Below are positions 9,152 through 53,952 of a stretch of 54,358 nucleotides of DNA, piece after piece. Made by a program: the position numbers and the translations under genes. The DNA lies in assembly GCA_038212405.1 (NCBI GenBank), contig JBBQUN010000003.1, positions 1 through 54,358 on the forward strand, read 5' to 3'. The notes below the pieces were generated by a model. The model did no database searches, had not been told where the DNA came from, and saw nothing but the letters and a program-made list of their open reading frames with translations. Position 1 is the stretch's first letter, and each line of letters starts with the position of its first letter. Origin of the DNA: Acidimicrobiales bacterium (lineage in GTDB: Bacteria; Actinomycetota; Acidimicrobiia; Acidimicrobiales; SZUA-35).

Positions 9152-9168
9152 CGGTAAAACAGCAGGTC

Positions 9169-23321: not shown

Positions 23322-23359
23322 TCACGCAGCTCGCAGCGAGGAGAAAGGAGCCGACGACT

Positions 23360-23824: not shown

Positions 23825-24234
23825 ACCGGCGGAGCGAACGAGGGTCGGCGACGGCAGAGGTCGCCATCCTGGTGCCGACGGTCGTGCTTCTCGTCGGATT
23901 CGTGGTCCTCGTCGGACGATTGTCCACCACCCAACAAGGCGTCAACTCCGCCTCGGCCGACGCTGCACGAGCCGCATCGATTCGGCAGGATCCATGGGCC
24001 GCTCAAGCTGACGGCGTCGCAGCGGCAGCCGAAACGCTCGGCGACCAAAGGGTGTCGTGCGCCGTGCTCGACACTTCCATCGACACCGCCCGGCTCGAAC
24101 CCGGCGGCATCGTGACCGCAACCGTGACCTGCACGGTCGGACTCGGCGACCTGCTCGGCCTTGGCATCCCGGGCTCCCGACAGGTCACCAGCAGTTCGTC
24201 GTCGACCGTCGACCGCTACCGAGGCGGATCATGA
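23821..24234 (+). CDS. TadE-like pseudopilin
   Basis: ERG-SATAEVAILVP, ADAARAAS, VTC.V...DL, VDRYR. Confidence 0.88.
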   Translation: MNRRSERGSATAEVAILVPTVVLLVGFVVLVGRLSTTQQGVNSASADAARAASIRQDPWAAQADGVAAAAETLGDQRVSCAVLDTSIDTARLEPGGIVTATVTCTVGLGDLLGLGIPGSRQVTSSSSSTVDRYRGGS

Positions 24235-24653
24235 CTACGGCAGCTCGGGCGGGTGAACGCGGGTCGGTCACGGTGTGGATCGTCGTCATGGCGATGCCGC
24301 TCATGATCGTTGCCGGACTCGTATTCGATGGCGGTCGGATTCTGGCCGAGCGACGCGAAGCGCTCGACGTCGCACAGAATGCGGCACGCGCCGGGGCTCA
24401 GGCCGTCGATGTAAGTGCAGTTCGCAGCGGTGACCTCCGGCTCGACCCGCAACTGGTCCAACTCGCAGCCCAGGACTATCTGACAGCGACCGGCCACACC
24501 GGGGCAGTCTCGATCGACGGCGCGAGCGTGACCGTGACGGTGACCAACACCGTCGACATGCAACTTCTCAGTGCCATCGGCATCGGTGAGAAGACCGTCA
24601 CCGGAACCTCAACAGCCCGCCTGGTGCGCGGCGTCGAAGGAGCAGACGAATGA
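24231..24653 (+). CDS. TadG-like pseudopilin
   Basis: ERG-SVTVW, GLVFDGG, AQNAARAGAQ. Confidence 0.85.
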   Translation: MTTAARAGERGSVTVWIVVMAMPLMIVAGLVFDGGRILAERREALDVAQNAARAGAQAVDVSAVRSGDLRLDPQLVQLAAQDYLTATGHTGAVSIDGASVTVTVTNTVDMQLLSAIGIGEKTVTGTSTARLVRGVEGADE

Positions 24654-33725: not shown

Positions 33726-35236
33726 CGACAGGCTTCCCCGGTTCGACGGGCCGCACCTACCGGCTCAGCCCGCCCGACCGAACGGGTTGGATGTTCGGGC
33801 TTGGTCCAATCCAGCTCCTCATCTGCGCCATCGGTGTCTTCGTGGGCGTGTTCGTGATGACGATGTTCGGTCCGATCGCCGGGTGTGTGGTGATCGTCTC
33901 GTTCATCGGACTGGGAGTCGCCAAGGTCGGCGACATGTCGCTGGTGCAAGCGGTCCCGCACGCGCTGCGCTGGGCCAAGACCACGACCCGAGGACCCTCG
34001 GTCTGGTTCGCTGTCGTCCCACTTGTCGGAGGTGACGCCGAGCGGACAGCACCGAGCGTGCTGGCCGACCACGAACTACTCATCGTCGATGCCGGGCACA
34101 TCGGTGTCGGGGCAGCGGGGGCGAAGATCGCCGTCAGTCGTGATCGGCGCAACAACACCTATGCCGCCACGTTGCGGGTGGCGGGCAAACAGTTCTCACT
34201 GGTCGAGCGGGGCGAGCAGGACCATCTCGTCAACCAATGGGGAATCGCTCTCCAGGCATTCATCGCCGAACGTTCTCCGGTGGTGTCGATTCGGTGGTCG
34301 GAATGGGCCGCTCCGGCCGGGCTCGACGAGCATCGCCAATGGCTCAACGAACACCTCGCGGCTGACCCACTGTCTGATGTCCGCATGGCGTATGAACGTC
34401 TCCTCCAGGAAGCCGGATCACAGGCCACTCGCCACGAGACGTTGGTGACCGTCACCATCAACGCCGGGAAGATGTCGCTGCGCCGAACGCAAAGGGACGA
34501 CACCACCCGTGCCGCAGTCGACCTGTTGCTCACCGAGATGCGGCTCTTCGCCCAACGGCTCGAAGGCGCCGACCTTGCGGTGTCGCCACCGCTGAATCCC
34601 GGCGAGTGGGCACGGGCGATGCGGCTTCGGCTCGACCCGTCATCGCGGCTTGCCCTCGACGGTCGAGCCCGATCGCTTGGGGAGACGGCGGGGGAGTGTT
34701 CACCCGACAACGCCGGTCCGCTGGCGGCGGTTGCGAACTGGACGTCGTGGCAGACCGACGGCGCCTACCACCGTGCGTTGTACGTGTCGGACTGGCCCCG
34801 GCTCGACGTCCCGGCTGCGTGGATGGCCGACCTCATGCTCTACAACGGAGCAGTCCGAACGGTGAGCGTGTTCTTCGAACCGATCCCACGATCGAAGTCG
34901 CAGCGCTCGATCACTCGTGACGCTGCCAAGATCCAGTCCGATGCCGAGCACCGATCCGAGAAGGGCTTTCGTGTCGGAGCGCACCACCGGCGGGCGGCAC
35001 AGGCGGTCGAGGAGCGCGAGGAGGAGTTGGTCGCCGGGTATGGCGAGTTCAACTACGCCGGCGTCATCACCATCACCGCCCGGACCACCGAAGAGCTCGA
35101 CGAGGCGACCGATGAAGTGACCCAGGTTGCTGCCGCAATCGGGCTCGAGGTCCGGCCACTCAACGGTCGGCACGATCTGGCCGTGTGCGCAACGTTGCCC
35201 TTGGCTCGCGGTCTGGTCCCGAAGGAGCACATGTGA
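33722..35236 (+). CDS. SCO6880/PrgI-like conjugation protein (VirB3-like TMs + cytoplasmic domain)
   Basis: TY......R.G.MFGL...Q, two TMs, TDGAYH...YV..WPR, REEELVAG.GE, ATLPLARG. Confidence 0.8.
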   Translation: MTTGFPGSTGRTYRLSPPDRTGWMFGLGPIQLLICAIGVFVGVFVMTMFGPIAGCVVIVSFIGLGVAKVGDMSLVQAVPHALRWAKTTTRGPSVWFAVVPLVGGDAERTAPSVLADHELLIVDAGHIGVGAAGAKIAVSRDRRNNTYAATLRVAGKQFSLVERGEQDHLVNQWGIALQAFIAERSPVVSIRWSEWAAPAGLDEHRQWLNEHLAADPLSDVRMAYERLLQEAGSQATRHETLVTVTINAGKMSLRRTQRDDTTRAAVDLLLTEMRLFAQRLEGADLAVSPPLNPGEWARAMRLRLDPSSRLALDGRARSLGETAGECSPDNAGPLAAVANWTSWQTDGAYHRALYVSDWPRLDVPAAWMADLMLYNGAVRTVSVFFEPIPRSKSQRSITRDAAKIQSDAEHRSEKGFRVGAHHRRAAQAVEEREEELVAGYGEFNYAGVITITARTTEELDEATDEVTQVAAAIGLEVRPLNGRHDLAVCATLPLARGLVPKEHM

Positions 35237-36576
35237 TGACACGACTCCTGCCAAGCAGACTGCGGCTGCCCGGTTGGATGACTGCGCCCGGACTTCGTCT
35301 TCCGAGGCATCGTGCCACCACCGCACACGCGAGTGCTCTCTATCCGTTCCATACGGACTCCGGTCTGGGGACTCGGGGCGTGTACATCGGCGAGGACATC
35401 TCCGCCGGAGGTTCCTCGTGGTGCTACGACCCGTTCCAGCTCTACACCGACAAGGTCATCACCAGTCCCAACATCATCGTGCTCGGCATGGTCGGGTCCG
35501 GGAAGTCGTCGGCGGTCAAGACCTATCTGTACCGCTCGATCGGCCTCCTTGGCTCTGGCGATGGCAATCCGCGCTGGTGCGGAATCCTCGACCCGAAGGG
35601 TGAGTACGGGCCACTCGCCGAGGCTCTGGGTTTGAGCCGGCTCGCCCTCGCCCCCGGTGGGCGGATCCGGCTCAACCCAATGGACCCTGGCCCCTACAGC
35701 GAGTCGCTCGACGAGCTTCGCTCTCGACGGTCGCAGATGGTCGGCGCCATGGCTGCAGCAGTGCTCCACCGTGAGCTTCGGCCGATTGAGGACGCAGCGC
35801 TCGGCTGGGTGATCGACATCATCACACTCACCCCCAACACCAACAGCGTTCCCACGTTGCACGACGTGGTCGACCTTCTGATGCATCCGACCGACGCCAT
35901 GGTCGACAAGGCCCAGCTCGACTCGGCCAGGGAACTAGCACGCGAGATCTCCGACGTGCGACACGCACTCGGCAAACTCCTCGACGGTCACCTCCGAGGC
36001 ATGTTCGATGGCCCGACGACCGAGCACATCGACTGGGGCGGCAGGGGAGTGGTCATCGACCTGTCGTCGGTCCACACCGACCCCGATGCGCTGACCGTGG
36101 TGATGATCGCAGCCATGGGCTGGTTTCAATCGCTCCTCGCCGCCCCCGACTCCGAACACGTTCCCCGCCGGGTCCAGGTGTGGGAGGAGATCTGGGCGCT
36201 ACTCGGCCAGGAGCGCACTGCCAAGTATTTCCAGTCCTGCCAGAAGCTGTCTCGTGACTACGGCGTTGTGAACATCTCGGTCGCCCACCGCATTGCAGAT
36301 TTGCGTGCCCAATCCGACGACGGCTCGGCCGCGGCCAAGGTCGCCACGGGCTTGCTCGCCGACACTCAGACCCGAATCCTGTTCCGGCAATCAGCGGACC
36401 AAGTCCCCGAGGCCGTGCAGATGCTTGGACTGACCGGCGTCGAAGCGCAGATCCTGCCCCGTCTCGCTCGGGGGCGAGCGCTCTGGCAAGTCGCCGACCA
36501 CAAGGCCGTGGTGCAGCACCGCATCGGCTCGACCGAGTGGCCCATCACCTTGACCGACGCCAACTTGAACGTCTGA
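35236..36576 (+). CDS. VirB4-like conjugative ATPase (short form)
   Basis: HRATTAH...LYPF, GMVGSGKS Walker A, DPKGEY, RLNPMD, KLSRDYG, LARGRALW. Confidence 0.9.
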   Translation: MTRLLPSRLRLPGWMTAPGLRLPRHRATTAHASALYPFHTDSGLGTRGVYIGEDISAGGSSWCYDPFQLYTDKVITSPNIIVLGMVGSGKSSAVKTYLYRSIGLLGSGDGNPRWCGILDPKGEYGPLAEALGLSRLALAPGGRIRLNPMDPGPYSESLDELRSRRSQMVGAMAAAVLHRELRPIEDAALGWVIDIITLTPNTNSVPTLHDVVDLLMHPTDAMVDKAQLDSARELAREISDVRHALGKLLDGHLRGMFDGPTTEHIDWGGRGVVIDLSSVHTDPDALTVVMIAAMGWFQSLLAAPDSEHVPRRVQVWEEIWALLGQERTAKYFQSCQKLSRDYGVVNISVAHRIADLRAQSDDGSAAAKVATGLLADTQTRILFRQSADQVPEAVQMLGLTGVEAQILPRLARGRALWQVADHKAVVQHRIGSTEWPITLTDANLNV

Positions 36577-39190: not shown

Positions 39191-39652
39191 TCAGAGAACG
39201 AGCGCGAGCAGTATCGCGAGCGCCCACCCGACAAGTAGGTGGGGACCGAAGGGCCAGCGTTGTTCATGCATCCGGCCCCGACTGAGTAGGTGTGCGACGG
39301 TGAAGCTGGCCGATGCAGCGAAGAACCCGATCACTGCGAGGATCGGGCTGAGCCAGCCGAGGTAGAGGCCGAGCGCTGCGGAGAACTTGATGTCGCCGAA
39401 GCCGATCGAAGCCGGCGAGATGAGGTGACTGATCAGCCACGGTCCGGCGAAGACAGCCGTCCCGATCATCATCGACGGTAGTGGCATTGCTTCATCGCCT
39501 TGTCGTGCAGCAAGCGCGAATCCGCCCAAGCCCGTTAGCACGATGAGCGCGACGTGTACGTTCGGGAGCCTGCGGCGGCGGGCGTCCTCGGTCGCAGCGG
39601 CAGCTGCGACGGCGCCGCCGAGCAGGAAGGTGGCAACGACGATGGTCTGCAC
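39191..39652 (-). CDS. Prepilin peptidase, A24 family (TadV/CpaA-like, no methylase domain)
   Basis: EDARRRRLPN, IGFGDIKF, PFGPHL; GTG start 7 nt after AGAAGGA. Confidence 0.88.
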   Translation of the reverse strand: MQTIVVATFLLGGAVAAAAATEDARRRRLPNVHVALIVLTGLGGFALAARQGDEAMPLPSMMIGTAVFAGPWLISHLISPASIGFGDIKFSAALGLYLGWLSPILAVIGFFAASASFTVAHLLSRGRMHEQRWPFGPHLLVGWALAILLALVL

Positions 39653-39681
39653 GATGTCGTCCTTCTGATTGGCTGCGTCTC

Positions 39682-40131
39682 CTATCGGCCGACCTGTGCC
39701 GTAACGGAGTCCTGCGCCCTTGCGCACCCACCAGCTGCTTCGATGACGAATTGGGTCCAGCGGACACCGTTCCACCAGCGCCATGCCCTGACGCCGGTGG
39801 GATCGGGGTACCAACGCGGCTGAAGCTTCTTGAGTCGGCGAGCGCTGCAGTGCTGGGCCTTGTCGTTTTGCAGGATCGTTCGGACATTGAAGCCAGCAGC
39901 CATCAACTGACGTTGGTAGATCCGAATCAGCACGACGGCGTCGTGGCGCTCGCTCGCAGTCCAACCGACTCGTGCTCGTTGGGTCAGATGATGGCCGATG
40001 GCGACGTGGTCGCTGCTGAAGCCGTGTCCGTCTCGGCGTATCGCCCCGTCGCAGACCGAGGCGAGGTACTCGATCGCATCGGCTTTGCTCGCGTAACCCG
40101 GCCAGATCGCACGTCGGCGTCCAATTCGCAT
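39682..40131 (-). CDS. CDGA-motif domain + DUF2510 protein
   Basis: LASVCDGA..RDGHGFS...Y.RQL, then WYPDPTG...RWWNGVRWT; AAGGGG RBS. Confidence 0.7.
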   Translation of the reverse strand: MRIGRRRAIWPGYASKADAIEYLASVCDGAIRRDGHGFSSDHVAIGHHLTQRARVGWTASERHDAVVLIRIYQRQLMAAGFNVRTILQNDKAQHCSARRLKKLQPRWYPDPTGVRAWRWWNGVRWTQFVIEAAGGCARAQDSVTAQVGR

Positions 40132-40249
40132 GTCGTTGTCCCCTTGATCGAGTGATTGTCGATGGGGGAGAACTGGCCGGTCTCCAAGGTGGCTCCTCAT
40201 CATGCCACACGTGTGTGACTGACCGGATCGAGCCTTCGGAGTCAACGCA

Positions 40250-41379: not shown

Positions 41380-42135
41380 ATGCCAAAGGATCTCTTGCGG
41401 ATGTTCGATGAGGAGTGGGCCGTGGTCGGGTCGTCGGTCGTGTCACGGCGGCGATTGGCCGCCTGGCAGGATGGTGACCCTCGGTTGCGTGGGTGTCGCT
41501 CACCCGCCGATCTGATCGCTCGCATCAGACATGGCGACCTGTTCGACTCTCGTGAGCTGTGCCACGGCTTGCTGGCCCTGGTCGGTCACGACGAGTTCGC
41601 CGTCCGAGTTCTGCTGCAGGCGATGATGCCGTCCCTGACGAATGAACTGGTGCGGTTGCTGGTGCCGGTCAGGGCGTCGTCATCGACCAGTTTCACAGCC
41701 GACGACGGTGAGGTCGATCAGATCCTCGTCTGTGCTGCGAATCAGGCAGTCCACGAGCATGCCGGATCGATCTCGATGTGGCCGATGTCGGATCTCGTGC
41801 ATCGCACGCACCGATTGGTCGTACAACGAATCCGTCACGAGCGCCGCTGGATGTCGGCGAACTGCGTGACCGACGAGGTCTTGTTCGGGACTGTCGCCCC
41901 GCCGCCTGGTGAGGAACCTGACTCGTCGGTCGAGGCGCTGGCGGTATTGCTTCGTGACGTTGCTCGCGAAGGTCGGGTGGCGAAGGCGGATGTTGCGTTG
42001 GTGTGGAAGTCGCGCCTTGCCGGGTTCGATTCGGCCGAGATGGCTGGCGAGCTTGGTGTCAGCACCGACACGTTTCTTCGCCGACGTCATCGGGCCGAAT
42101 CCAGAATTGTCGAGGCGATGCGGGAGGTTGCCTGA
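41380..42135 (+). CDS. Divergent sigma70/ECF-like factor
   Basis: Region-2-like D.FAVRVLLQAMMP.L helix and C-terminal region-4-like HTH (SAEMAGELGVSTDTFLRRRHRAESRI). TGATG overlap with virD4. Start uncertain. Confidence 0.65.
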   Translation: MPKDLLRMFDEEWAVVGSSVVSRRRLAAWQDGDPRLRGCRSPADLIARIRHGDLFDSRELCHGLLALVGHDEFAVRVLLQAMMPSLTNELVRLLVPVRASSSTSFTADDGEVDQILVCAANQAVHEHAGSISMWPMSDLVHRTHRLVVQRIRHERRWMSANCVTDEVLFGTVAPPPGEEPDSSVEALAVLLRDVAREGRVAKADVALVWKSRLAGFDSAEMAGELGVSTDTFLRRRHRAESRIVEAMREVA

Positions 42136-44255
42136 TGGCGAGCGACACCCGGTCGACCGCCGGTTCCGGTCCCGACGAGTGGGCGGCGTTCGTCATGCTC
42201 GGCGTCGGCGTGTTGGTTGTTGCTGTCTGGTCGGGTGCTCAGATGGCGACGTTATTGGCAACCGGTCACTGGTTGGCAGCAACGATTGGTGATGGCCTCG
42301 GGGCAATGCTCCGGCTTCCGTCGAACGCATCGAAACCGGCGCTTGCTTGGCCGTCGACGGTGCAGTCCGATCTGCCGGGGCCAATCGTCTACTGGTCGGT
42401 CACGGCTGTCGTGGTCGTGGTCCAGGCTGCTGTGTGCACCTGGCTCGGAGTGCGAATGTTCAGTTGGCGGGTCGGGACCGACAAGCGTGAACGCCTCGGC
42501 GTCAACGCGAACGCTCGGTTCGCCACGGCCAAGGATCTGCGAACGATCATCGTCACAGGTCCACAGCCTGGCCGGTTCATCATGGGCAGGGTTGGTGGAA
42601 ACCTCGTAGCCACCGAGAACCGTGCGGGTGCGCCGACCCGTCGACGTCGCAAGGGCGAACCGGTCGATCGCCAGGGTGACCGGTCGGCCGTTGCGGTCAT
42701 CGGGCCACAGCGTTCGGGCAAGACGGTGAATGTGATCTCGGGGATCCTCGAGTGGGAGGGTCCGGCGATTCTCAGCTCGGTTCGTGACGATCTGTTCGAG
42801 CGGACGATCACCCGTCGGTCGCAGCTCGGTCAAGTGTTCGTGTTCGATCCGCTCGAATCGCTTGGTGAGCTTCCCGAGGGCGTTCACCGTGTGGGTTGGT
42901 CGCCGTTGCATGTGGCCGGGACGGTTTCGGGGGCAATGGAGGCGGCGAGCGTTCTGCTCGAGGCTGCGCCGTTGGAGGGGACGACCAACGCCAACTATTG
43001 GAACAAGAAGGGTGAGGCGTTGCTGTGGCCGATCCTGTTCACCGCAGTGATCTCGGGGAAGTCGATGGCCGATGTGGTGCGTTGGCTGGCGTTGCAGGAC
43101 GGCAACCAGACCAAGGACGTCGAGGAAGACGACGGGGCTGCGGTGAAGCCAAAGCCCGGCGACGTCGTTGGGGAGGAGCCGAAGAAGCAAGAGCCTGCCG
43201 GTGAGATCCGGGCGTTGTTGAATCTGGCGATCGCCGACACGAAGCGGCCAGCCGTGCAGGCGCAGGCTCGTCACGCTCTGGCCCAGTTCGATGGGTTCTG
43301 GCTGTTGGACCATCGAACGAGGTCGGACATCTTCTCCACCTCGCAGACGTTGGTGCAGCCGTGGGAGGACCCGTATGTTTCGTTCGCTTCGTCGCCGGGG
43401 ATCGGCTCGGTGGTGGATCTCGGGATGCTGCTGGATGGGAACAACACGTTGTATGTCGTGCAGCCGCTGAAGTCGACGCAGCGGTTCTCGGTGGTGTTCG
43501 GCGGTCTGCTCGGTGCGCTGCTGAAGGATCAGGCGTACGAGGCCGCTCACCGCTTCGGCGGGCCGTTGCCTGATCTGCTGGTGGTGATCGACGAGGCGGG
43601 AAACACGCCGTTGCAGTGGTTGCCTCAGGTGGCGTCGACATGTTCGGGGATCGGTGTGCTGTTGGTGACGGTGTGGCAGTCCAAGGCGCAGATCGATGCG
43701 ATCTATCAGAAGCAGGCCGATCCGCTGCTGACGAATCACGGGTCAAAGATCTTCTTCGCCGGGGTGAGCGACGAGTCCACGCTTCGGTACGTGTCGTACC
43801 TGGGAGGGGAGGAGGAGGTACACCAGCGATCTTCGAGCTCGGATGTCCATGCGTCGTCGACCCGCCGGTCGATTGGCGACACGACGACTCACAAGCGGTT
43901 GTTGCCAGCTGAGCTGCTGCGCCAAGTCATGCCGGGTGAAGGTTTGCTCGTGCACGGGACGCTGCCTCCGGCGCACATCAAGAGCCGTCGATATTGGGCC
44001 GATCCGAAACTGCGGGCGCTTGCTGCTGGCGAGGGTGAGGCACCGCCAGCGGTTGAGTCCCCCTCGGCGCTGAAAGCTGCCTTGCGCTTCGATCGGACTC
44101 CCCGCCAGGAGATCCTCGATCACTTGCCGGACCACGAGACGAAGTCTCGACCTCGACCGTTGGGCGATGACCCCGTCACTGACCACTCACGACCGAGCGG
44201 ACCCAAGCCGCTCGGACAAAGCCGCGATGACCACGAGGGCGGCATCGAGCGGTGA
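42135..44255 (+). CDS. virD4: Type IV coupling protein (VirD4/TraG family)
   Basis: Two N-terminal TMs, GPQRSGKT, FVFDP, IDEAGN, WQSKAQI. Confidence 0.93.
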   Translation: MASDTRSTAGSGPDEWAAFVMLGVGVLVVAVWSGAQMATLLATGHWLAATIGDGLGAMLRLPSNASKPALAWPSTVQSDLPGPIVYWSVTAVVVVVQAAVCTWLGVRMFSWRVGTDKRERLGVNANARFATAKDLRTIIVTGPQPGRFIMGRVGGNLVATENRAGAPTRRRRKGEPVDRQGDRSAVAVIGPQRSGKTVNVISGILEWEGPAILSSVRDDLFERTITRRSQLGQVFVFDPLESLGELPEGVHRVGWSPLHVAGTVSGAMEAASVLLEAAPLEGTTNANYWNKKGEALLWPILFTAVISGKSMADVVRWLALQDGNQTKDVEEDDGAAVKPKPGDVVGEEPKKQEPAGEIRALLNLAIADTKRPAVQAQARHALAQFDGFWLLDHRTRSDIFSTSQTLVQPWEDPYVSFASSPGIGSVVDLGMLLDGNNTLYVVQPLKSTQRFSVVFGGLLGALLKDQAYEAAHRFGGPLPDLLVVIDEAGNTPLQWLPQVASTCSGIGVLLVTVWQSKAQIDAIYQKQADPLLTNHGSKIFFAGVSDESTLRYVSYLGGEEEVHQRSSSSDVHASSTRRSIGDTTTHKRLLPAELLRQVMPGEGLLVHGTLPPAHIKSRRYWADPKLRALAAGEGEAPPAVESPSALKAALRFDRTPRQEILDHLPDHETKSRPRPLGDDPVTDHSRPSGPKPLGQSRDDHEGGIER

Positions 44256-44327: not shown

Positions 44328-45059
44328 GTGAGTGACTCCATATCCGAGGCCCGATTCTTGGCCACTTTCAGATTCGAAGACGGAGCGCCAGTCACTTTGA
44401 AGCCGGCACAGCGCCTGGTAAACGCGTTCCTCGAACTGCGTGAGCAGCCGCTCGTCACACCGCTCGGGTTGGTTGCTGGGGCCGGCACCGACACTCAGAA
44501 ATTCCCCGCCCGTCATACTCTCTGGATCACCATCGCAGGCGAGGTAGACGGCGGAGCCACCATACTCTTCTACAACGATGAGACTGGCTATGAGAAGCAA
44601 CTGCTGTTCGAGAAGTCGAGGTCTATCGAGTCAACTGTCGAGCTCCTGGAGACCGTGGCCAACGAGTTCGCCGAGAGAGTCGGGCTCCTAGAAAACCAAG
44701 AATCGCTGTTACTGACCGAGATCCAGCGACGTTTCGAGGTGATTGCCTCAAAGCTGGACGATCTTCGAAGCAACGACCGGTACCTTCGCGAGACACTGGC
44801 TCTGCGGGATGAAGAGATCTTCGAGCTCAAGGGCCGGCTTGAGGCGTTGTCGAAGCTGTGTTCGTCTCAGTCGCGCGAGCTACAAGAAAAGCGGGCCCAG
44901 CGATCGTTGCTGGCACTGGTGACATTCACATTGGGGGCATTTCTCAACATCGGCCAGGGTTTGGTAGTCAACGAGCTCGACGAGCGCTATCAGCCTCTGC
45001 GAGGTGTGTTCGACTACGTGGACGCCACCCTTGACCTCGTCGACGGGATCGAGGGTTGA
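44328..45059 (+). CDS. Hypothetical coiled-coil protein with C-terminal hydrophobic helix
   Basis: E/L/R-rich heptad region, then SLLALVTFTLGAFL. Confidence 0.6.
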   Translation: MSDSISEARFLATFRFEDGAPVTLKPAQRLVNAFLELREQPLVTPLGLVAGAGTDTQKFPARHTLWITIAGEVDGGATILFYNDETGYEKQLLFEKSRSIESTVELLETVANEFAERVGLLENQESLLLTEIQRRFEVIASKLDDLRSNDRYLRETLALRDEEIFELKGRLEALSKLCSSQSRELQEKRAQRSLLALVTFTLGAFLNIGQGLVVNELDERYQPLRGVFDYVDATLDLVDGIEG

Positions 45060-45120: not shown

Positions 45121-46149
45121 TCACATCGCTGCTGAGGCGACGAGAAACAAGACGACCACAATGACCAGCATCGCTGCTGCGGCTGCGATGAGGGCGTGCC
45201 TTTCTCGCCGCTTCGACTGTTGCTGGGCGGCGGTGGCCGCAAGGGTCTCGCGTGCCGCGGTCGCTTCCGCTGCAGCGGCTCTCGCCTGAGCTGCCTTGGT
45301 GACGAGTGCTTCGGCCTGTTGGAGGGCTGTGCTGCGTCGTTCGTTGAGCCAGGCCGCTGCGGCCGATGGAGTGGGGAGGCTCGTGTGGGCGACGAGATCG
45401 ACGATGTGGTTGTCGGTTGCATGGCCGACAGCGACGATCACCGGGGTCGTTGCGGCGACGATGACCTGTGCGACTTCGCTGGAGTCGAACGCCACGAGGT
45501 CTGTGGCAGCACCTCCGCCTCGGCAGATCACGATGGCCTGGCAACCCGGCTGTTGGGCACGGGCAACGGCTTCGCTGATTGCTGCGATGGCGCCGGTGCC
45601 CGACATCGGTACCTCGATGGTGTCGATACTCCAGCGGTGCCCACCGACCCGCAGCCGGTCGAGGAAGTCAGCACCCCCGGCCCCGCCGCCAGTCGGGCAG
45701 ATGAGCGTGAGCGTGTCGGCGCTGTATGGCAACCGCAGCCGCTTGTTGATCTTGTCGAGGCTGTCGGCTTCGATCCTTCGCCGAAGGACTGTCGTGGCTC
45801 TGGCGGCGGACGACTCCTGGCCGACGACGGTTAGCCGATACACACAAAATTGGAGCGGTCCGTAGAGACGATGAATCGTGAGTTTGCCGAACACGATCAC
45901 CTCGGTGCCGTCGAGATCGAGCCGTCCATTCGGAAGCGATCGTGGAAGGAACACCAGGCGAATCCTCGACTCGATTCGATCGGTTTCGTTGTGGGCGACC
46001 AGTTCGCCGTAGCTCCAGTGTTTGCGCTGCTGAAAGCCGGAGATGGTGCCGGTGACCTTCATGTAGTCGGTGCTCGCGACCAGGACATCGCTGACGAGGC
46101 CGAGTATCTCCGTCACCGTCGCTGGAATCTGGAACGGCTCCGCTGTCAT
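45121..46149 (-). CDS. Exonuclease VII large subunit (XseA)-like nuclease with C-terminal TM anchor
   Basis: N-terminal OB fold (VTGTISG...H.SY.EL), RGGG..TDL..FD, PVIVAVGHATD, D.VA....TPSAAA; ends LIAAAAAMLVIVVVLFLVA. ATGA overlap with the relaxase stop. Confidence 0.85.
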   Translation of the reverse strand: MTAEPFQIPATVTEILGLVSDVLVASTDYMKVTGTISGFQQRKHWSYGELVAHNETDRIESRIRLVFLPRSLPNGRLDLDGTEVIVFGKLTIHRLYGPLQFCVYRLTVVGQESSAARATTVLRRRIEADSLDKINKRLRLPYSADTLTLICPTGGGAGGADFLDRLRVGGHRWSIDTIEVPMSGTGAIAAISEAVARAQQPGCQAIVICRGGGAATDLVAFDSSEVAQVIVAATTPVIVAVGHATDNHIVDLVAHTSLPTPSAAAAWLNERRSTALQQAEALVTKAAQARAAAAEATAARETLAATAAQQQSKRRERHALIAAAAAMLVIVVVLFLVASAAM

Positions 46150-49100
46150 CGGCTGATTCGTAGGGCTCGTGCGGGGTCAGGTCCTGGCGTTTGGATGATG
46201 GCGTTCACGGTTTGCCGGGTCTGTTCCCATCGGCGTGCCTGCAGCGGCTCGTCGGGTTGGGTCCCGATGGCGTGTGCGAGCCCACCACGATCAGAGGCGA
46301 CGGCTCCGGTGTGGTGGGTACGGCCGAGCTGGCCGATCCGGTAGCGCTCGATCTCCGTTGCGGCTTGGTCCCATCGTTTGCCGGCTTCCGGGTCGGTCGG
46401 GCGTTCGCCGAGTGTCTGGGTCCGGTAGGGTCGGGGTTCGGCGAGTGCTGTTTCGACATGTCGATCGATCAGGGTGTCAACCACTGCGAGTTCGACGCTG
46501 GCCCGGTCTCGTTGCGCCGCGATCTGCGGGGCTCGTTGTTGGGTGGCGGCAATGTCGGCGAGGTGTGCCCGAGCGACATCGAGTTGCCAGTCGGTGTCGG
46601 CGATGAAACGCCTTGCGACCTCTGGGCCGTCCGGGTCTTTCTTGAGTGCCTTCTTCTTCGACAACGCGGGGAGGGATCGTTCGATCTGATCACGGTCCTT
46701 GGCGAGCAGCGCGATCCGTTGTTCGAGTTGGCGGGCGACACCGTTCTGGTAGCCGAGGCCGTCAGACCGCAAACCTTGGAGGTCGTCGACGATCTGGCGG
46801 CGTGTGCGGGCGAGGTCGGGTGCGCTGAGTTGCCGGTTGTTGTCGGCACGGGCGTCGACGATCGCGCCGAGGAGCTGTTTGTGGTCGTCCCGCTGTCGGG
46901 CCGGACTCGTGTCGGTGAGGGCTGGGGCGATTTGGCCGTCGGTGGGCTCGATGTTCCAGCGCAGGTTGTAGGTGGCGTACTGCCCGGCGGCTTTGTCCCA
47001 CAGCTCGGCTCGTTGCCGGTCGCGTTCGCCGAGGACCGCGACGAGCGGTGCCGGCGGATCGGTGATGGTGTCGGCCACGGCTCGTTTGGTGAGGAGTTCG
47101 GCGGCACGCCTGGTGTTGGGCGTGTTGAGCGCCTCGAGTTCGACGAGCAGCTTTCTGGTGTGGGCGAGGACGTCGGCGATGTCGAAGTCGGCGACGGTCG
47201 CGAGATCGACGGGTTTGGCCCGGGTGAGTTGGGCTTCGACTCGTTCCTGGAGTTCACGGGTGTCGGTGACGATGGGGAGCTGGTGTTCGGCGGCCGGTGT
47301 CGGCTCGGCGAACGCTGCGGCGTCAACCGCGTAGAACCGGACGTCGAGTTGTCCGCGGGTGAGAGCGACGTATTGACCCTCGGTGCTGGAACGGTCGGTC
47401 AGCAACGAATGCGACGTCGAGTAGGTGTCGCCTTGGGCGGCGTGCGTGGTCATGGCGTAGGCCGGTGTGAGGCCGCCGTTGATGCCATCACGGAGGCGGG
47501 TGGTGAGCCAGTCGTGGGGAACAACGATTGGTCCGCGTTGTTCGAAGTCGACAATCAGCGACGGTTCTGAACCTTCACCGATCGAGATGACGGTTCCTTT
47601 CGTGCCGTTGTGGATATAGGAGTTCCGGTCGCCACGGTCGGGTCTGAGTTCACGGTTCTGGGCACGGGCCATGACCCGGTCGCCGACGTGGAAGGTCGAA
47701 TCGCCGAGCGTCACTCCGGGCCCGGTGATGATGCCGTCGGCGTGGAGGAGTGCTTGGGCTCGGGTGTTGAGTTCACGGCGTGCCGAGTGTGTTTCGGCCA
47801 GCATTCTTGAGGGATTGATGATGTCGGGGTCGGCGAGGTGTCGTTGCCAGGCGACGTACCAATCGGCGGTGAGGGTGTCGAGGAGTTCGGGTGAGGTGGC
47901 GGCGGTGATGATGCGTTGGTTCGTGTCGAGCCGTTCGAGCGCCTCGGCGATCCGTCCGCTTCGGTAGTCGGCAGCTGCGAGCCGAATGTCGGCCATCTCG
48001 GGTGCCCGTTGGCGACGGTTCTCGCTGAGCGCGGGCGTGCGGTCCGGATGAAGTCGGGTCAGGTGTGCCCACATGCCACCCGCTTCGACCGAGGCGTGCT
48101 GGGCCGGGTCGCCGATGGTGCGCATCGTCGATCCCGCTCGTTCGACGTGGCGGACCAACGCTGCGTGGGCACGGTTTCCGAGCGTTGATGCCTCGTCGAC
48201 GATGACGACACTTCGTGCGTCGAGCAGCTGCGGGTTGTGGTCGAGGCGGCGCACGAATCCGGCGACGGTTGTTGCAGGGATTCCAGTCGAGGCTTGGAGG
48301 ACTTCGGCTGCGGTGCCGTTCACTGCTGCGCCGTAGAGGGTGTAGCCATCGCCTTCCCAAGCTCGTGCAGCGACCTCGAGGGCGGCGGTCTTGCCCGACC
48401 CGGCAGGACCGATGACGGCTTGGAACCGATCGCCGGAAGAGGTGATGGCGTGGACCATGGCGGCTTGGTCGGTGCCCAGCGTGTGGCCGGTGAGGGTCTG
48501 CCAACGGTCGATGGCCGCCTGTGTGGTCGTCGGGTCGACGACTCCGGCGCCGACGTTGTGACCTCTCGGGTATGCGAGGGCGATGGTCTGTTCGGTGTGG
48601 ATGATGTCGGGCGTGGTGTAACGGATCATGCCCGGGGTGAGGGTGACCTTGCCGGCATCGCCGATCAGATCGGCGGCGACACCATCTTGGGAGCGGATCT
48701 CGATGACCTGTTCGGTGTTCAACCATCGGTCGGCCAGGTCGGTCACCTCGTCGGCGTTGAGCCGTCCGCCGGAGAAGTCGGTCGTCGCCTCTATGACGTG
48801 GCGTCGGTCGAAGATCGCTGTCTGCTCGGTGACGCCCTGCGGGGATGAGAGGTGTTGGTGGAGGCTTGCGGTGTCGTCGGGTGTCCACAGCAGGGGAGCG
48901 TCGTGGGCGGTGAGTGCCCGGATTTCGCTTGGGCCGAGTCCGGTGTCGGCGAGGCGCTGGTCCCAGAGTGATTGGAGTTGGTCCCGGTTGACAGAGGTGT
49001 CTTTGGCGGCCCTCGTTGCGTAGGCGGCGAGCTGGCGAGCAGCAGGGGAGTCGGTGCCGATCTGCCGGACCTCAGCCATGATCTGCGCCTTGCGGGTCGA

Positions 49101-50162
49101 CATCGCGTCCACCGTGGTCGATGGGACGTCGACGAGGTGGGCGATGCCTCGGCGGGTCTCGGTGAATGCGTACCCCTGCCGGTTGAGGATTGATTGGATC
49201 TCGGCCTCTGCGATGTGGCCTGAAGTAGAGGCGTGAGCGTAGGGACCTCGACCGTCGAGGGCCTGGACTCGACCGTCGGGACTCGTGGCCATGTTTGCGA
49301 CGACAACATGGACGTGAAGCTGCGGCTCGAGTTCGCGGCTGGTGTCGTGCAGGAACGATGCTGCGATCATCCCGTCGCCGGGTTCCTGGCCGCGTCCACG
49401 CCGGACAGCGATGGCGTTGTCCTCGATGTAGCCGAGCGCCTTGCCGACAGATTGGTGCAGCGCGTCCTCGATGATCGCTTTGCCCTCATCGTCGGCGGCG
49501 GCCCAAGCGATGGAGATCGACTTCGGCACCGAGTAGGTCAGGTCGTACCCAAGTACCACCTGCGGCTCCTTTCGCTCGGCCTTGAAGCGCTCGACCTCGG
49601 CCCGACTGAATCGCCACTCGCTGTGGCCTCGAGTGCCGACTTCCCGCACACCGTCGATGTATGTCTTGAGAGGAATCGCTGAGTCCTTCTCGCTTGCGAG
49701 CCTGCTAGCGGCGGTGCGCTGGGCAAGGTCGGTGAGGTACTGCCGTTTCACCCCGATGAGGGCCGCTGCCTCCTGTGCCGTCAGGAGCTGATCTGGCTCA
49801 GTTAAGGGGACCACGGCCGCAGCGTGGGTTGCTCGACCCGCTGATCCAATTGCCCCAACGAGTTGCTCACCGGTCTCTGGGTGTTGTCCAAGCAGCACTC
49901 GTCCGAGCATCGCCGGATCAACGAAATGCTGTGCGTCGATCGGAACCATCGCTCGTGCTCCGGCTCCGTGCCATCGCCCCGGCTCTTGCGCTGAGTCGGC
50001 GTAGTAACTCCCCTGTCCGCTGGCGGCGACCAACTCGGGTCCCGAAGTGGCGCGTTGGCCAGCCTCACGATTCTGGTTGCCGGTCAGGTACTCGACTACT
50101 GCGTTCGCCGCTCCGGCGGCCTCGGCACCGGCGGAGCCAAGCTTGCTGACACTGACGTGCAT
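46146..50162 (-). CDS. MOB_F (TrwC/TraI-like) relaxase-helicase
   Basis: EYL/SYYAD tyrosines, PGRWHG.G, GYDLTYSVPKS.S, HDTSR..EPQLHVH; RecD-like helicase motifs GPAGSGKT, VDEAS, GDPAQ, YAMTTHAAQG. Confidence 0.96.
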   Translation of the reverse strand: MHVSVSKLGSAGAEAAGAANAVVEYLTGNQNREAGQRATSGPELVAASGQGSYYADSAQEPGRWHGAGARAMVPIDAQHFVDPAMLGRVLLGQHPETGEQLVGAIGSAGRATHAAAVVPLTEPDQLLTAQEAAALIGVKRQYLTDLAQRTAASRLASEKDSAIPLKTYIDGVREVGTRGHSEWRFSRAEVERFKAERKEPQVVLGYDLTYSVPKSISIAWAAADDEGKAIIEDALHQSVGKALGYIEDNAIAVRRGRGQEPGDGMIAASFLHDTSRELEPQLHVHVVVANMATSPDGRVQALDGRGPYAHASTSGHIAEAEIQSILNRQGYAFTETRRGIAHLVDVPSTTVDAMSTRKAQIMAEVRQIGTDSPAARQLAAYATRAAKDTSVNRDQLQSLWDQRLADTGLGPSEIRALTAHDAPLLWTPDDTASLHQHLSSPQGVTEQTAIFDRRHVIEATTDFSGGRLNADEVTDLADRWLNTEQVIEIRSQDGVAADLIGDAGKVTLTPGMIRYTTPDIIHTEQTIALAYPRGHNVGAGVVDPTTTQAAIDRWQTLTGHTLGTDQAAMVHAITSSGDRFQAVIGPAGSGKTAALEVAARAWEGDGYTLYGAAVNGTAAEVLQASTGIPATTVAGFVRRLDHNPQLLDARSVVIVDEASTLGNRAHAALVRHVERAGSTMRTIGDPAQHASVEAGGMWAHLTRLHPDRTPALSENRRQRAPEMADIRLAAADYRSGRIAEALERLDTNQRIITAATSPELLDTLTADWYVAWQRHLADPDIINPSRMLAETHSARRELNTRAQALLHADGIITGPGVTLGDSTFHVGDRVMARAQNRELRPDRGDRNSYIHNGTKGTVISIGEGSEPSLIVDFEQRGPIVVPHDWLTTRLRDGINGGLTPAYAMTTHAAQGDTYSTSHSLLTDRSSTEGQYVALTRGQLDVRFYAVDAAAFAEPTPAAEHQLPIVTDTRELQERVEAQLTRAKPVDLATVADFDIADVLAHTRKLLVELEALNTPNTRRAAELLTKRAVADTITDPPAPLVAVLGERDRQRAELWDKAAGQYATYNLRWNIEPTDGQIAPALTDTSPARQRDDHKQLLGAIVDARADNNRQLSAPDLARTRRQIVDDLQGLRSDGLGYQNGVARQLEQRIALLAKDRDQIERSLPALSKKKALKKDPDGPEVARRFIADTDWQLDVARAHLADIAATQQRAPQIAAQRDRASVELAVVDTLIDRHVETALAEPRPYRTQTLGERPTDPEAGKRWDQAATEIERYRIGQLGRTHHTGAVASDRGGLAHAIGTQPDEPLQARRWEQTRQTVNAIIQTPGPDPARALRISR

Positions 50163-50651: not shown

Positions 50652-51293
50652 TTATGTAGCGCCCTCGCAACGGTCTGACCTCTCACAGTGCGCCGGTGGC
50701 GCAGTGCAACAGCCGCGCTCGGTGGCTCGGGATTGTGCGCCGGGTCGTTCGCTGCTCGGGCCTCCCTCTCTCATGTCCCGAAATGGGTGAATCAGGGAGT
50801 GGCGGATTGATCGAGCAGGGCCGCTTCTTGAATCGTGGCTGTGGTTCGCATGGGTGGCTGGTGTCGGCCAGATCGTGAGGACAGCCAAGAGTGTGGCGCC
50901 GGTGGTGATGTAGACGTCGGCGACGTTGAACGTGGGCCACCAGCCGAGGTGCAACAAGTCGACGACGCTGCCGGACTCGAGGCGATCGATGCTGTTCGCG
51001 ATGGCGCCGGCCACGACCATCGAGGTCGGGACCATCGGCGCCTGGCCTGCGAGCAAGGCTCCGACGAGAAGTGCGGCGATCAGCAGGCCTGCTGCGACGA
51101 GTACGACTGCGGGCAGCCGGTTGAAGAGGCCGAATGCGATTCCGTCGTTGTAGCTGAGTTGCAGGTCGAGTGGCCCCGGAAGCTCGATCGGCCCGTTGTC
51201 GAGTGCTTGCACCGCCCAGGCTTTGGAGGCGAGGTCAATGACGATCAGCGCTGCTGTCACGATGGCGAAGCTCCCGTGGCGTCGCAGTGTCAT
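50652..51293 (-). CDS. lspA: Lipoprotein signal peptidase II
   Basis: D.ASK, YNDGIAFG, GAIANSIDR, VVD, PTFNVAD; long low-similarity C-terminal tail. Confidence 0.9.
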   Translation of the reverse strand: MTLRRHGSFAIVTAALIVIDLASKAWAVQALDNGPIELPGPLDLQLSYNDGIAFGLFNRLPAVVLVAAGLLIAALLVGALLAGQAPMVPTSMVVAGAIANSIDRLESGSVVDLLHLGWWPTFNVADVYITTGATLLAVLTIWPTPATHANHSHDSRSGPARSIRHSLIHPFRDMREGGPSSERPGAQSRATERGCCTAPPAHCERSDRCEGAT

Positions 51294-52078
51294 CGGCTCA
51301 TGCCGAGGATGCGGCGAGCACCGTTGGCGACGACGGCGAAGATGAACCCACCGGCGATCAAGTCCGGGATCGCAGAGTCGAAGGCGATGACTCCGATGGC
51401 TGCGGCGATGACGAGGGCGTTGACCTTGATGTCGTTCGCGGTGAAGATCCAGCTGGCTTGGAGGTGGACCTCACCGGACCGAACCTGGTTCAAGATGACG
51501 AGAGTGACGAGGTTGCCGGCGAGTGCGAGTGCGGACAGCACGATCATCGACGTCGGGTCGGGGAGTTCGGTGTCGACGACGAATCGGCGGATCACCTCGA
51601 CGAGACCGACCGCGGCGAGGCCGAGCTGGACATAGCCGCTGGCCCGTGCGAGGCGCTTCTTGTGGGCCGCCGCGGTGCCGACGGCTGCGAGGCTGAGTGC
51701 GTACACGCTGGCATCGGCGCCCATGTCCAGCGCGTCGGCTACCAACCCCATCGAGCGACTGATGACCCCGACGGTGAGCTCACCGATGAAGAACCCGGCA
51801 TTGATGATCAAGGCGATGAGCAGCGCCCGTTGCTCTCGCACCGAGTCGCCCTCGGTGCCCATGTCACTGGTGTCGTCGACGTGGCGGGCACCTAGGCCAA
51901 GCGGTTCGAGCACATCGCCGATCGCTCCAGCGTTCGAGCGATGCTCGATGAGGACGTCGCGCTGTTGGCTGTCGAACTCGACCCGCTCGACGTCGTCGCG
52001 GTCGTCGAGTGCCATGCGAATGAGTTGTTCTTCTGCGGCGCAGTCCATCGCCGGCACGTGGAACCGACTGACCGTCAT
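51290..52078 (-). CDS. HMA-like domain + cation diffusion facilitator family transporter
   Basis: VPAMDCAAEE N-terminal domain; SMGLVADALDMGADA, HLQASWIFTAND, PDL; about 6 TMs. Confidence 0.88.
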   Translation of the reverse strand: MTVSRFHVPAMDCAAEEQLIRMALDDRDDVERVEFDSQQRDVLIEHRSNAGAIGDVLEPLGLGARHVDDTSDMGTEGDSVREQRALLIALIINAGFFIGELTVGVISRSMGLVADALDMGADASVYALSLAAVGTAAAHKKRLARASGYVQLGLAAVGLVEVIRRFVVDTELPDPTSMIVLSALALAGNLVTLVILNQVRSGEVHLQASWIFTANDIKVNALVIAAAIGVIAFDSAIPDLIAGGFIFAVVANGARRILGMSR

Positions 52079-52425
52079 GACGTCTCCGTTTCGGGCTCGT
52101 AGTTGGGGCACAGCTCGATGCCGGTACCGGTGACAGCGAGGAGCTGCTCAGCGGATCGCAGCACGTCGACGACCTCGGAGTGGGCGATGCGGTAGAAGGC
52201 CTCGCGCCCGCTTCGGCGATCGACGACAAGCCCGCAGTCCCTCAAGCACCTCAGATGCCCGGAGATGTTGGCCTGTGACGCGTCGAGGGTTTCGACGATG
52301 TCAGTCACGCGACGTTCACCACCAGCGAGCAGACTCAGGATGGACAGGCGTGTTCGATCACCGAAACCGCAGAACAGCTTCGCTGCCACGGCGACATCGC
52401 CCGAACGCTCAATGGTCGCACTCAT
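52075..52425 (-). CDS. ArsR/SmtB-family metal-sensing repressor (CmtR/CadC-like)
   Basis: GDRTRLSIL..L..GE..V, SQANISGHLRCLRDCGLV, C-terminal Cys (LCPNY). Confidence 0.92.
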   Translation of the reverse strand: MSATIERSGDVAVAAKLFCGFGDRTRLSILSLLAGGERRVTDIVETLDASQANISGHLRCLRDCGLVVDRRSGREAFYRIAHSEVVDVLRSAEQLLAVTGTGIELCPNYEPETETS

Positions 52426-52761: not shown

Positions 52762-53952
52762 TCAGCCGGCTCGACTATGTGGGACCCCGCTTGCTTCGTT
52801 TGCGGCTGATGCTGTGAGGAGGTTTGCGATTTGCCGGGCTGCGGTGGCTTGTTGGCCGGGCATGACGTGGGCGTAGACGGCGAGGGTCATCGAAGCGTTC
52901 GCGTGGCCGAGTCTTTGGGCGACGACGTGGACGGGAACGCCCGCCCTCAGTGCGATCGTGGCGTGCGTGTGCCGTAGGTCGTGGAATCGGATCCTGGGAA
53001 GGTCAGTCTTCGCGGCGAGCCGAAGAAACCGCTCGCTAAGGTAGTCGGGCCGCAACGGCCGACCGTCGGGGTAGACGAACACGTGCCCGTCGAGGCTGGC
53101 CAAGCTTTGGCGTCGACGGTGGCGTTTCATGATTTCGACGGTGCCGGGGTCGAGGTCGACGGTTCTTGCGGTGCCGTTCTTGGGTGTTGAGGTGATGGTT
53201 TCGGTCCCGACTCGGGTTCGTGACTCGGCGACTGCGATTCGTGATTGTGTGAGGTCGAGATTTCGCCAGCGGAGCGCTGCGATTTCGCCTCGTCGCATCC
53301 CGGTGAGCGCTGCGAGATGCCATAGCGCTTGGAGGTGATCGGCGGCGACACTTCCGAGGAAGTGAGCGAGTTCGTTGGTGTCCCAAGCTCGGATCGGCTG
53401 CTTGGCGGCTCGGGTTCGTCTTGGCGGGTGGGCGTCTTCGGCAACGTTGCGCTTGATGATCCCGGCAGCACACGCGTCAGCGAGCGCGAGGTGCACGAGC
53501 ATGTGGACGTTGCCAACGGTGCGAGGGCGCAGCCCGCCAGATCCGTTGATGCGTCCGTTGCGGAGAAGGTCGGCGTACAGCGCGTCGAGGTGTGCTCCGG
53601 TGAGTTCGTGGAGGCGGAGACCACCGATGGTTGGTAGGACGTGATGCCGAAGATTCGCCATGTAGGAGGCGATCGTCGTTGGTTTGGCGCGGGCTGCGAT
53701 GCTGGCGAGCCACTGGTCGGTGATCCACCCGCCGAGGGTGAGCCCGGTGGGTTCGACGTAGGTGCGGGCGTAGATGCGGCTCACGAGCTCCGCCCGGGCT
53801 TGTTCTGCGTCGCCCCGGCTGGGGTATCCGCCGTGCCATTTCTGGCGGCGCTTTCCTTCGAGTGTCTTGCCGATGTCGACCACGACGTACCAGCGGACGG
53901 TCTTCTTGCCGGTCTTGGTGGTGTGGGTGCGCTTACGGATGTGTCCCTGCAT
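52762..53952 (-). CDS. Tyrosine integrase of the mini-element
   Basis: Arm-binding N-terminus (GHIRKR...RRQKWHGGY), TGMRRGEI, TPKNG, RFHDLRHTHAT, LGHA, VYAH; GGAGG RBS. Confidence 0.95.
   Translation of the reverse strand: MQGHIRKRTHTTKTGKKTVRWYVVVDIGKTLEGKRRQKWHGGYPSRGDAEQARAELVSRIYARTYVEPTGLTLGGWITDQWLASIAARAKPTTIASYMANLRHHVLPTIGGLRLHELTGAHLDALYADLLRNGRINGSGGLRPRTVGNVHMLVHLALADACAAGIIKRNVAEDAHPPRRTRAAKQPIRAWDTNELAHFLGSVAADHLQALWHLAALTGMRRGEIAALRWRNLDLTQSRIAVAESRTRVGTETITSTPKNGTARTVDLDPGTVEIMKRHRRRQSLASLDGHVFVYPDGRPLRPDYLSERFLRLAAKTDLPRIRFHDLRHTHATIALRAGVPVHVVAQRLGHANASMTLAVYAHVMPGQQATAARQIANLLTASAANEASGVPHSRAG

Follow-up and report, generated by a model that had tools for sequence, protein, structure and literature searches.

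Why would a conjugative element carry, directly behind its relaxase gene, a relative of exonuclease VII (ExoVII) that ends in a membrane anchor? This question is raised by one gene in a stretch of 54,358 nucleotides (nt) from an Acidimicrobiales bacterium, which at its full length is called the window here. We found that its product belongs to a distinct clade of homologues of the ExoVII large subunit (XseA), in which the OB fold and the catalytic domain are kept, the tail helices and the beta-barrel are lost and a membrane helix is added. In most sequenced cases, the start codon of the nuclease gene overlaps the stop codon of a TrwC-type relaxase gene, beside a coupling-protein gene and within an integrative conjugative element. 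The nuclease core is thus a known one, and what we rate as new is its architecture and its conserved genetic setting. The coordinates of the features are collected in Table 1.

Domain architecture of the nuclease

The protein of 342 amino acids (aa; P0001) matched the Pfam family Exonuc_VII_L with an expectation value (E) of 7.1e-35 and a score of 121.4 bits against a cut-off of 35.9. The match spans residues 136-311, which correspond to only positions 6-179 of the 315 profile positions, and the catalytic motifs read CRGGGAATDL and GHATD. The match of residues 11-105 to the OB domain family tRNA_anti_2 (PF13742) scored 26.7 bits, slightly below the cut-off of 27. An N-terminal OB fold was also found in the alignment to Escherichia coli XseA (8txr_A), which begins at residue 5 of that protein, and in the structural model, where a beta-barrel is formed by strands within residues 30-110. 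A subfamily profile was built from alignment A1, which consists of the window protein and 23 close relatives. This profile matched 8txr_A with E 2.4e-37 over E. coli residues 5-313, that is, over the OB fold, the catalytic domain and the so-called neck.

The AlphaFold model of the nuclease (predicted local distance difference test, 91.4; predicted template modelling score, 0.78) consists of an OB barrel, an alpha/beta catalytic domain and a long helix that runs unbroken from residue 261 to residue 341. Its best Foldseek match was E. coli ExoVII (8TXR, E 7.5e-22), and the secondary matches were OB-bearing Lys- and Asp-tRNA synthetases. The chain terminates 81 residues past the catalytic domain; this segment is a single helix, with 21 alanines among the 58 residues of its soluble part (261-318), and its final 24 residues are the membrane anchor. 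These C-terminal residues are strongly hydrophobic, with a Kyte-Doolittle value of 3.19 over 19 residues from residue 319. The protein has no signal peptide, carries the basic cluster KRRERH just before the anchor and ends with the anchor, so that by the positive-inside rule a cytoplasmic position of the nuclease head is expected.

Canonical XseA has a neck (residues 267-308) with two XseB sites, tail helices (309-395) with four XseB sites, and a terminal domain-swapped beta-barrel which is the main dimeriser (PMC10835039). In the window protein the tail helices and the barrel are missing and a helix of neck length is kept. On the NCBIfam xseA equivalog model TIGR00237, P0001 scored 163.7 bits, below the cut-off of 180, over profile positions 1-298 of 389, and the host's own XseA scored 297 bits. 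Because P0001 falls below this cut-off, has neither tail nor barrel and is encoded without an xseB gene next to it, we class it as a homologue of XseA and not as an equivalog.

These results bear out most of what a first-pass annotation of the DNA had described, namely an XseA homologue with an OB fold, the catalytic motifs and a C-terminal transmembrane segment, on which Pfam, the 8txr_A profile match and hydropathy agree. Its motif GH.TD is correct; its motif RGGG..DL needs amendment, as three residues lie between RGGG and DL. It had further described the XseB-binding region as replaced by a short Ala-rich coil and a transmembrane segment. The transmembrane segment and the richness in alanine are there, whereas a helix of neck length remains. 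The ATGA overlap between the nuclease start and the relaxase stop, which it had also noted, was found as described (Table 1).

A distinct clade of tail-anchored proteins

A word-indexed search returned 24 short relatives of 194-373 aa with scores of 137-491 bits; beyond these, scores fall to 91 bits or less for ordinary XseA. An exhaustive profile search gave 21,288 proteins at E <= 0.001. A hydrophobic segment at the C-terminus was present in 50 of the 150 best representatives (lengths 194-382 aa) and absent from the remaining 100 (161-670 aa). A FastTree tree was calculated from the shared OB and catalytic part only. Its 150 rows comprise 41 tail-anchored and 109 canonical proteins, with the host XseA and 24 more distant XseA among the latter; rows shorter than 300 aa were left out, as were 16 rows without the trimming motif, 6 of them tail-anchored. 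All 41 tail-anchored rows fell on one side of a branch with local support of 68, and together with three full-length sisters they were grouped with support of 97. The simplest reading would be a single origin, in which the tail and the barrel were lost and the anchor was gained.

Residues D161, R210, H243 and D246 align with D155, R205, H238 and D241 of the E. coli enzyme (residue list from PMC10835039). They are invariant in A1. Across 62 full-length tail-anchored proteins, D161, R210 and H243 are each present in 62/62 and D246 in 60/62, and this conservation reaches proteins at about 30% identity. The active site of the nuclease thus appears, by its conservation, to be under selection.

The clade was carried by 3 of 87 other genomes of the window's family, and ten diverged members that were looked up are mostly singleton sequence clusters. 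At the class level, a search with the single protein at E <= 1e-30 gave no match in 400 other genomes, a threshold which misses diverged members and so sets only a lower bound on rarity. A protein search of the PLSDB plasmids returned 14 records, all of them canonical xseA in chromosome-sized or mislabelled records and none tail-anchored. In the sequencing-run search, no RNA run with the sequence was found, and five DNA runs contained at most 0.47 of the sampled words.

Linkage to relaxase genes

Sixteen other tail-anchored loci were readable, and their contexts were compared by tblastn with the window proteins. Four (L005-L008) came from a scan of species genomes, which were metagenome-assembled and assigned to Acidimicrobiaceae, Candidatus Aldehydirespiratoraceae and 'Actinomycetes'. 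Nine (L085-L092 and L104) came from metagenome contigs, and three (L205, L206 and L208) from a search of 88 genomes in the window's own family, in which L005 and L006 were found again and were counted once.

A relaxase gene lies directly upstream on the same strand in 11 of the 16 loci (L005, L007, L008, L085, L086, L087, L088, L089, L091, L205 and L208). Two further loci, L006 and L104, have less than 370 nt of upstream DNA and give weak matches to the relaxase C-terminus at the contig edge (E 1e-3 and 5e-4); in the genome of L006, relaxase residues 1-1280 were found on another contig end (L210). At L092 there is too little upstream DNA for relaxase linkage to be judged. The relaxase is absent upstream of L090 and L206. 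L090 contains a 5'-truncated nuclease remnant of 199 aa (1451-2050) with its anchor intact, near a 984-aa open reading frame (ORF; 3882-6836) which we take to encode a putative Tn3-family transposase. This locus is probably a decayed element.

The one well-assembled exception is L206. Its nuclease gene (7989-9062, + strand) encodes a diverged paralogue with 29% identity and is the last gene of a Tad-pilus operon which resembles that of the window's element. Members of this operon include a TadA-type ATPase, a T2SSF protein and a Tad pseudopilin (neighbours at 18-7730 and 9059-9526), and the paralogue stands directly before an ORF weakly similar to the window's prepilin peptidase (tblastn E 9.7e-06; no Pfam family). 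No relaxase was found within 8 kb upstream.

The junction itself is also conserved. The ATGA overlap with the relaxase stop was tracked in frame in the window and in L005, L007, L087, L088, L091, L205 and L208, and it persists to 31% nuclease identity. ATGA is found at the inferred nuclease start in L085, L086 and L089 as well, whereas the junctions of L006 and L008 are of other kinds. In seven loci (L005, L007, L085, L088, L089, L091 and L092) the nuclease gene is followed by a convergent gene for a coupling protein, and the two genes are convergent in the window too.

The remaining 148 XseA loci, with 1.7 Mb of DNA, served as the control, and none gave a relaxase or coupling-protein match at E <= 1e-3. 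Of these loci, 147 were taken as canonical from their weaker scores (L038, L093 and L094 alone were read directly), and the 148th is L104. Because none of the 148 control loci shows a relaxase or a coupling protein, the relaxase linkage is specific to the tail-anchored clade. L038, L093 and L094 were considered as intermediates and rejected, as they are canonical full-length XseA. At L093, the full-length XseA gene (86-1588) lies about 1 kb from an integrase-like gene (2517-3209), and the C-terminal residues of its product are similar to those of P0140, a canonical sister of the tail-anchored clade. The L093 XseA might be a mobile, still canonical relative.

The nuclease gene is an accessory gene, as most TrwC genes in the same genomes are without it. 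One related genome (G491) has three tail-anchored copies beside a canonical xseA. Ten TrwC matches were found in this genome, nine of them over the cut-off, and a nuclease gene follows only 2 of the 9; at four other TrwC genes that were inspected there, no nuclease gene lies downstream. In the window's genome, there are three TrwC matches and one nuclease gene. The counts for G491 amount to a very high load of conjugative elements.

The relaxase and its junction with the nuclease gene

In the relaxase of the window, a RecD-like helicase part is fused to a TrwC-type relaxase. Residues Y25, Y53 and Y54 are invariant among six aligned relaxases, and we take Y25 and Y53/Y54 to be the counterparts of Y18/Y26 of TrwC. 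With these tyrosines invariant in the six relaxases, the idea that the nuclease replaces the second cleavage of the relaxase at termination was rejected. The TrwC domain lies at 48945-50102 (- strand; relaxase residues 21-406). Because its 386 residues span 286 profile positions, it contains an insertion of about 100 residues, in which a weak match to HTH_17 was seen (E 0.016, residues 126-197). Long and short TrwC domains occur among relaxases both with and without a nuclease partner.

We scanned the region of 44-51 kb for promoters and terminators. None scored above shuffled expectation, and no promoter-like site was found between the relaxase gene and the nuclease gene. On inspection, no obvious Shine-Dalgarno sequence precedes the ATG of the nuclease gene.

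Host exonuclease VII and XseB

The window contains no xseB gene, as the first-pass annotation had stated; the sole match to PF02609 in the whole genome is on contig C72. There the host keeps a canonical xseA of 442 aa with xseB directly after it, the arrangement of an ExoVII holoenzyme, and such an adjacent xseB is lacking at the tail-anchored gene. The window protein and the host XseA share 32% identity over 237 residues. Besides the host, xseB was found in 28 of 31 related genomes searched. An uncontrolled complex prediction paired the soluble part, residues 1-318, with the host XseB, using A1 for the former and, for the latter, an alignment (A3) of 22 XseB of related genomes; its score of 0.00 speaks neither for nor against binding.

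The linker between the catalytic domain and the anchor varies from 26 to 67 residues across the clade. It is Ala-rich and Pro-free in the window's subgroup and Pro-rich, with at least 3 prolines, in 13 of 62 members, among them the relaxase-coupled L208. Because of its variable length and proline content, we regard the linker as a tether and not as a conserved XseB-binding rod. The nuclease probably works without a stiff XseB rod, since the Pro-rich linkers in part of the clade could not carry one.

The integrative conjugative element

The integrative conjugative element in the window extends over at least 43 kb. Housekeeping genes, for the Der GTPase and a SpoIIE-type phosphatase, lie to its left, and the tRNA-Pro gene with the tyrosine integrase gene (9077-10403) is its likely left end. 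The integrase gene is followed by genes for an Mrr-like protein, an M23/SLT cell-wall hydrolase, the Tad-pilus operon (SAF-domain protein, TadA-type ATPase, two T2SSF proteins and TadE/TadG-like pseudopilins) and the single-stranded DNA-binding protein SSB. The order continues with a VirB4/TraG-like ATPase, a prepilin peptidase, the coupling protein, the nuclease and the relaxase, and then with a lipoprotein signal peptidase, a cation-efflux protein and a second integrase. No repeat of the tRNA-Pro region of at least 14 nt occurs elsewhere in the window, and the right end was not found. The second tyrosine integrase gene, near the right end of the contig, could mark the border of the element or belong to a tandem second element.

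Table 1. Positions in the window of the nuclease gene, its encoded domains and neighbouring features
Feature	Position	Strand	Evidence or remark
tRNA-Pro	9077-9152	+	
Tyrosine integrase	9264-10403	+	
Type IV coupling protein, VirD4/TraG type	42003-44255	+	T4SS-DNA_transf E 5e-24, TraG-D_C E 2.6e-20
243-aa ORF between the coupling-protein and nuclease genes	44328-45059	+	Outside the conserved module
Tail-anchored XseA-like nuclease gene (342 aa, P0001)	45121-46149	-	Stop codon 45121-45123
C-terminal transmembrane anchor, residues 319-342, KRRERH just before	45124-45195	-	Hydropathy, model helix, clade conservation
Ala-rich helical tether, residues 261-318, at the position of the E. coli XseA neck	45196-45369	-	
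ExoVII catalytic domain, about residues 136-260, with D161/R210/H243/D246	45370-45744	-	Pfam Exonuc_VII_L
N-terminal OB fold, about residues 11-110	45820-46119	-	Pfam tRNA_anti_2, model strands, 8txr_A alignment
ATGA overlap, relaxase TGA and nuclease ATG	46146-46149	-	+ strand reads tcat
TrwC-type (MOB_F) relaxase-helicase, 1338 aa	46146-50162	-	Pfam TrwC E 3.4e-65, AAA_30 E 2.4e-46
Second tyrosine integrase	52762-53952		

Several genes of the element drew attention in their own right. A Tad pilus and a prepilin peptidase occur here with a VirB4/TraG-like ATPase, a coupling protein and a MOB_F relaxase (18291-24653, 35185-36576, 39191-40210 and 42003-44255). A Tad pilus with a VirB4-like and MOB_F gene set is an unusual mix for a conjugation apparatus, and a single literature search gave nothing specific on the combination of Tad and MOB_F in Acidimicrobiia. 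After the Tad pseudopilin genes stands an ORF of 1190 aa (24650-28222, + strand) without a Pfam family; a stretch of 66 of its residues matches, with 36% identity, DNA from the far end of L006. The 243-aa ORF has a coiled-coil-like middle and a hydrophobic stretch near its C-terminus; it belongs to no Pfam, NCBIfam or PADLOC family, and tblastn found no counterpart in any related locus. Upstream of the relaxase gene and on its strand (50652-52111, - strand), the genes for the lipoprotein signal peptidase and the cation-efflux protein are apparent cargo of the element; the efflux protein contains a heavy-metal-associated domain.

Discussion

We propose, with a probability of roughly 0.45, that the protein is an accessory single-stranded DNA (ssDNA) nuclease of conjugation which is tail-anchored at the cytoplasmic face of the membrane, and we prefer a role in donor-side quality control. 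Because of the ATGA overlap, the lack of a promoter-like site and the lack of an obvious Shine-Dalgarno sequence, the nuclease may be made by termination-reinitiation after the relaxase, and thus would be present when and where the relaxase is. It would be inserted by its tail, so that its nuclease head stays on the cytoplasmic side, within a few nanometres of the membrane and level with the coupling protein. There it could cut single-stranded T-strand DNA which has a free end or is 5'-tyrosyl-linked to an unfolded relaxase. In this way the coupling protein, the channel and the nicked copy of the element would be freed from aborted or stalled relaxase-T-strand intermediates. Clearing on the donor side is favoured because expression of the nuclease is tied to that of the relaxase.

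Published activities of ExoVII suggest the substrate. On ssDNA the enzyme has both endonuclease and exonuclease activity and requires a free end, and one XseB contributes a strand that completes the catalytic fold of XseA (PMC10835039). When it strips a 5'-tyrosyl adduct from ssDNA, a 5'-phosphate remains one nucleotide in; this removal needs a single-stranded overhang of at least 4 nt, and whole gyrase is released only if the gyrase is denatured (PMC7929499). The relaxase is covalently joined to the T-strand, and its passage through the channel requires its unfolding (PMC10359608). Because of these activities and of a relaxase that is covalently bound and unfolded, relaxase-T-strand intermediates would be the natural substrate of the nuclease.

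The first-pass annotation had anticipated several of these points. The removal of 5'-tyrosyl adducts by ExoVII, which it had invoked, is supported by PMC7929499. The survey that it had suggested, of XseA homologues with a transmembrane tail for linkage to relaxases, was positive as described above, with 11 of 16 loci linked directly, 2 weakly and none of the 148 controls. Its dedicated conjugation nuclease at the membrane agrees with the linkage, the catalytic residues and the anchor. The part of that proposal which concerned anti-plasmid defence found no support: PADLOC gave no match for P0001 or for three neighbouring ORFs, and the genes are placed in transfer operons and not in a defence island.

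Several points weigh against the proposed role. Purified E. coli XseA alone was reported to be inactive in earlier work cited in PMC10835039, so that XseB-free activity of the tail-anchored nuclease is only putative; the neck-length helix of the window protein could still hold the host XseB. The nuclease gene is dispensable for this relaxase type, and the paralogue at L206 is not relaxase-linked. The 16 loci, a minority of the clade, come from metagenome-assembled genomes or contigs of related actinobacteria and hence are not independent. Finally, the evidence fits donor-side and recipient-side roles alike.

The main rival is a role in entry exclusion or fertility inhibition, in which the nuclease would destroy T-strands that enter carrier cells, or those of rival co-resident elements at the coupling protein. 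To this end it would make a cut directly behind the relaxase, itself unfolded and tyrosyl-linked to the DNA, and degrade the strand from there. We consider this rival somewhat unlikely. The membrane location and the position in a transfer operon resemble those of known exclusion genes, the accessory distribution is typical of exclusion and inhibition genes, and a genome such as G491, with three copies and 10 TrwC matches, offers scope for conflict between elements. A precedent is Osa of plasmid pSa, a ParB/Srx-fold DNase which causes fertility inhibition and hinders T-strand transfer at the coupling protein; Maindola et al. 2014 are said to have described it as a plasmid nuclease acting against rival transfer. 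Host ExoVII itself reportedly attenuates the installation of plasmid DNA delivered by a type IV secretion system in recipients (Kiyokawa et al. 2020). Against such a role, exclusion would need standing expression, whereas translation of the nuclease is tied to the relaxase of the donor phase. In most elements, the relaxase is made only in transfer-competent donors. Moreover, there is no visible mechanism by which the element's own T-strand would be spared, and no similarity to known exclusion or inhibition proteins was detected (only the ExoVII and OB families pass in Pfam, only xseA in NCBIfam and none in PADLOC).

A more novel mechanism, which we regard as unlikely, is that the membrane-tethered ExoVII head acts as a conjugation-specific 'de-relaxase': at the coupling protein or the entry site it would recognise the unfolded relaxase on the 5' end of the T-strand, cut just behind the phosphotyrosyl link and then degrade the T-strand. 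If true, it would be the first enzyme from a mobile element whose task is to resolve relaxase-DNA adducts, and it would either rescue jammed donor channels or provide a relaxase-specific weapon for exclusion or for competition between co-resident elements.

It is quite improbable that the protein is a second ExoVII, still dependent on host XseB bound to its neck helix, with a function in general repair of DNA-protein crosslinks or in ssDNA turnover. The element would then carry it as cargo, or to cope with ssDNA from its own rolling-circle replication, and in neither case would it have a direct role in transfer. A helix of 58 residues is kept at the neck position, which in E. coli binds two XseB (PMC10835039), and xseB is at hand in the host and in most of the related genomes. 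Cargo, however, would not retain the ATGA overlap from 69% to 31% identity, the membrane anchor, conserved throughout the clade, would be of no evident use to an enzyme of general repair, and the Pro-rich linkers of 13 of the 62 members also argue against it. Very improbable is a non-catalytic adaptor whose OB fold and inactive nuclease fold would hold ssDNA or the relaxase at the membrane, close to the coupling protein, and would not cut: OB folds bind ssDNA and E. coli XseA alone is reported inactive (PMC10835039), but four catalytic residues that are near-invariant in 62 diverged proteins are expected of an active enzyme.

The preferred reading, donor-side clearing by an anchored nuclease, can be set beside known systems. 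Similar to E. coli ExoVII (XseA4.XseB24, PDB 8TXR), the clade has the OB fold, the Asp/Arg/His/Asp set and a helix at the neck position. Unlike that enzyme, it has a transmembrane anchor in place of the tail and the barrel, no adjacent xseB, the motif GH[A/S]TD instead of GHExD, and a place in a conjugation operon instead of a housekeeping one. The relaxase-T-strand complex resembles the gyrase case of PMC7929499 in being a 5'-phosphotyrosyl protein-ssDNA adduct, with the protein unfolded during transfer, the sort of substrate that ExoVII is able to process; that case differs in that it concerns a chromosomal, soluble XseA-XseB enzyme and topoisomerase adducts. The likeness to Osa, a DNase, is one of concept only, both being mobile-element proteins. 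The folds are unrelated, Osa shows no such coupling to the relaxase gene of its plasmid, and no homology to Osa was detected with Pfam. EndA and NucA, likewise similar in concept only, are transformation nucleases which stand at the membrane beside a DNA translocator that uses type IV-like pili. They face outward and cut incoming duplex DNA, whereas the clade nuclease is predicted to face the cytoplasm and has a different fold. A search of full-text literature, supplements aside, found no paper that links ExoVII or XseA with relaxases or conjugative elements; the supplement of PMC10835039 (XseA length survey, SI Fig. S5) might mention short forms.

Models of conjugation contain no dedicated nuclease for the relaxase-T-strand complex, and the tail-anchored clade is a concrete candidate for one. 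Such a nuclease would address the question of how aborted transfers and covalent relaxase-DNA adducts are cleared. An ExoVII core that works, or has been re-engineered, without the 50-nm XseA-XseB rod would also bear on the purpose of that rod. If the role should instead be in exclusion or in conflict between elements, the clade would represent a new nuclease-based control of gene flow. An ExoVII relative inside a DNA-transfer operon points to a previously undescribed nuclease step in conjugation.

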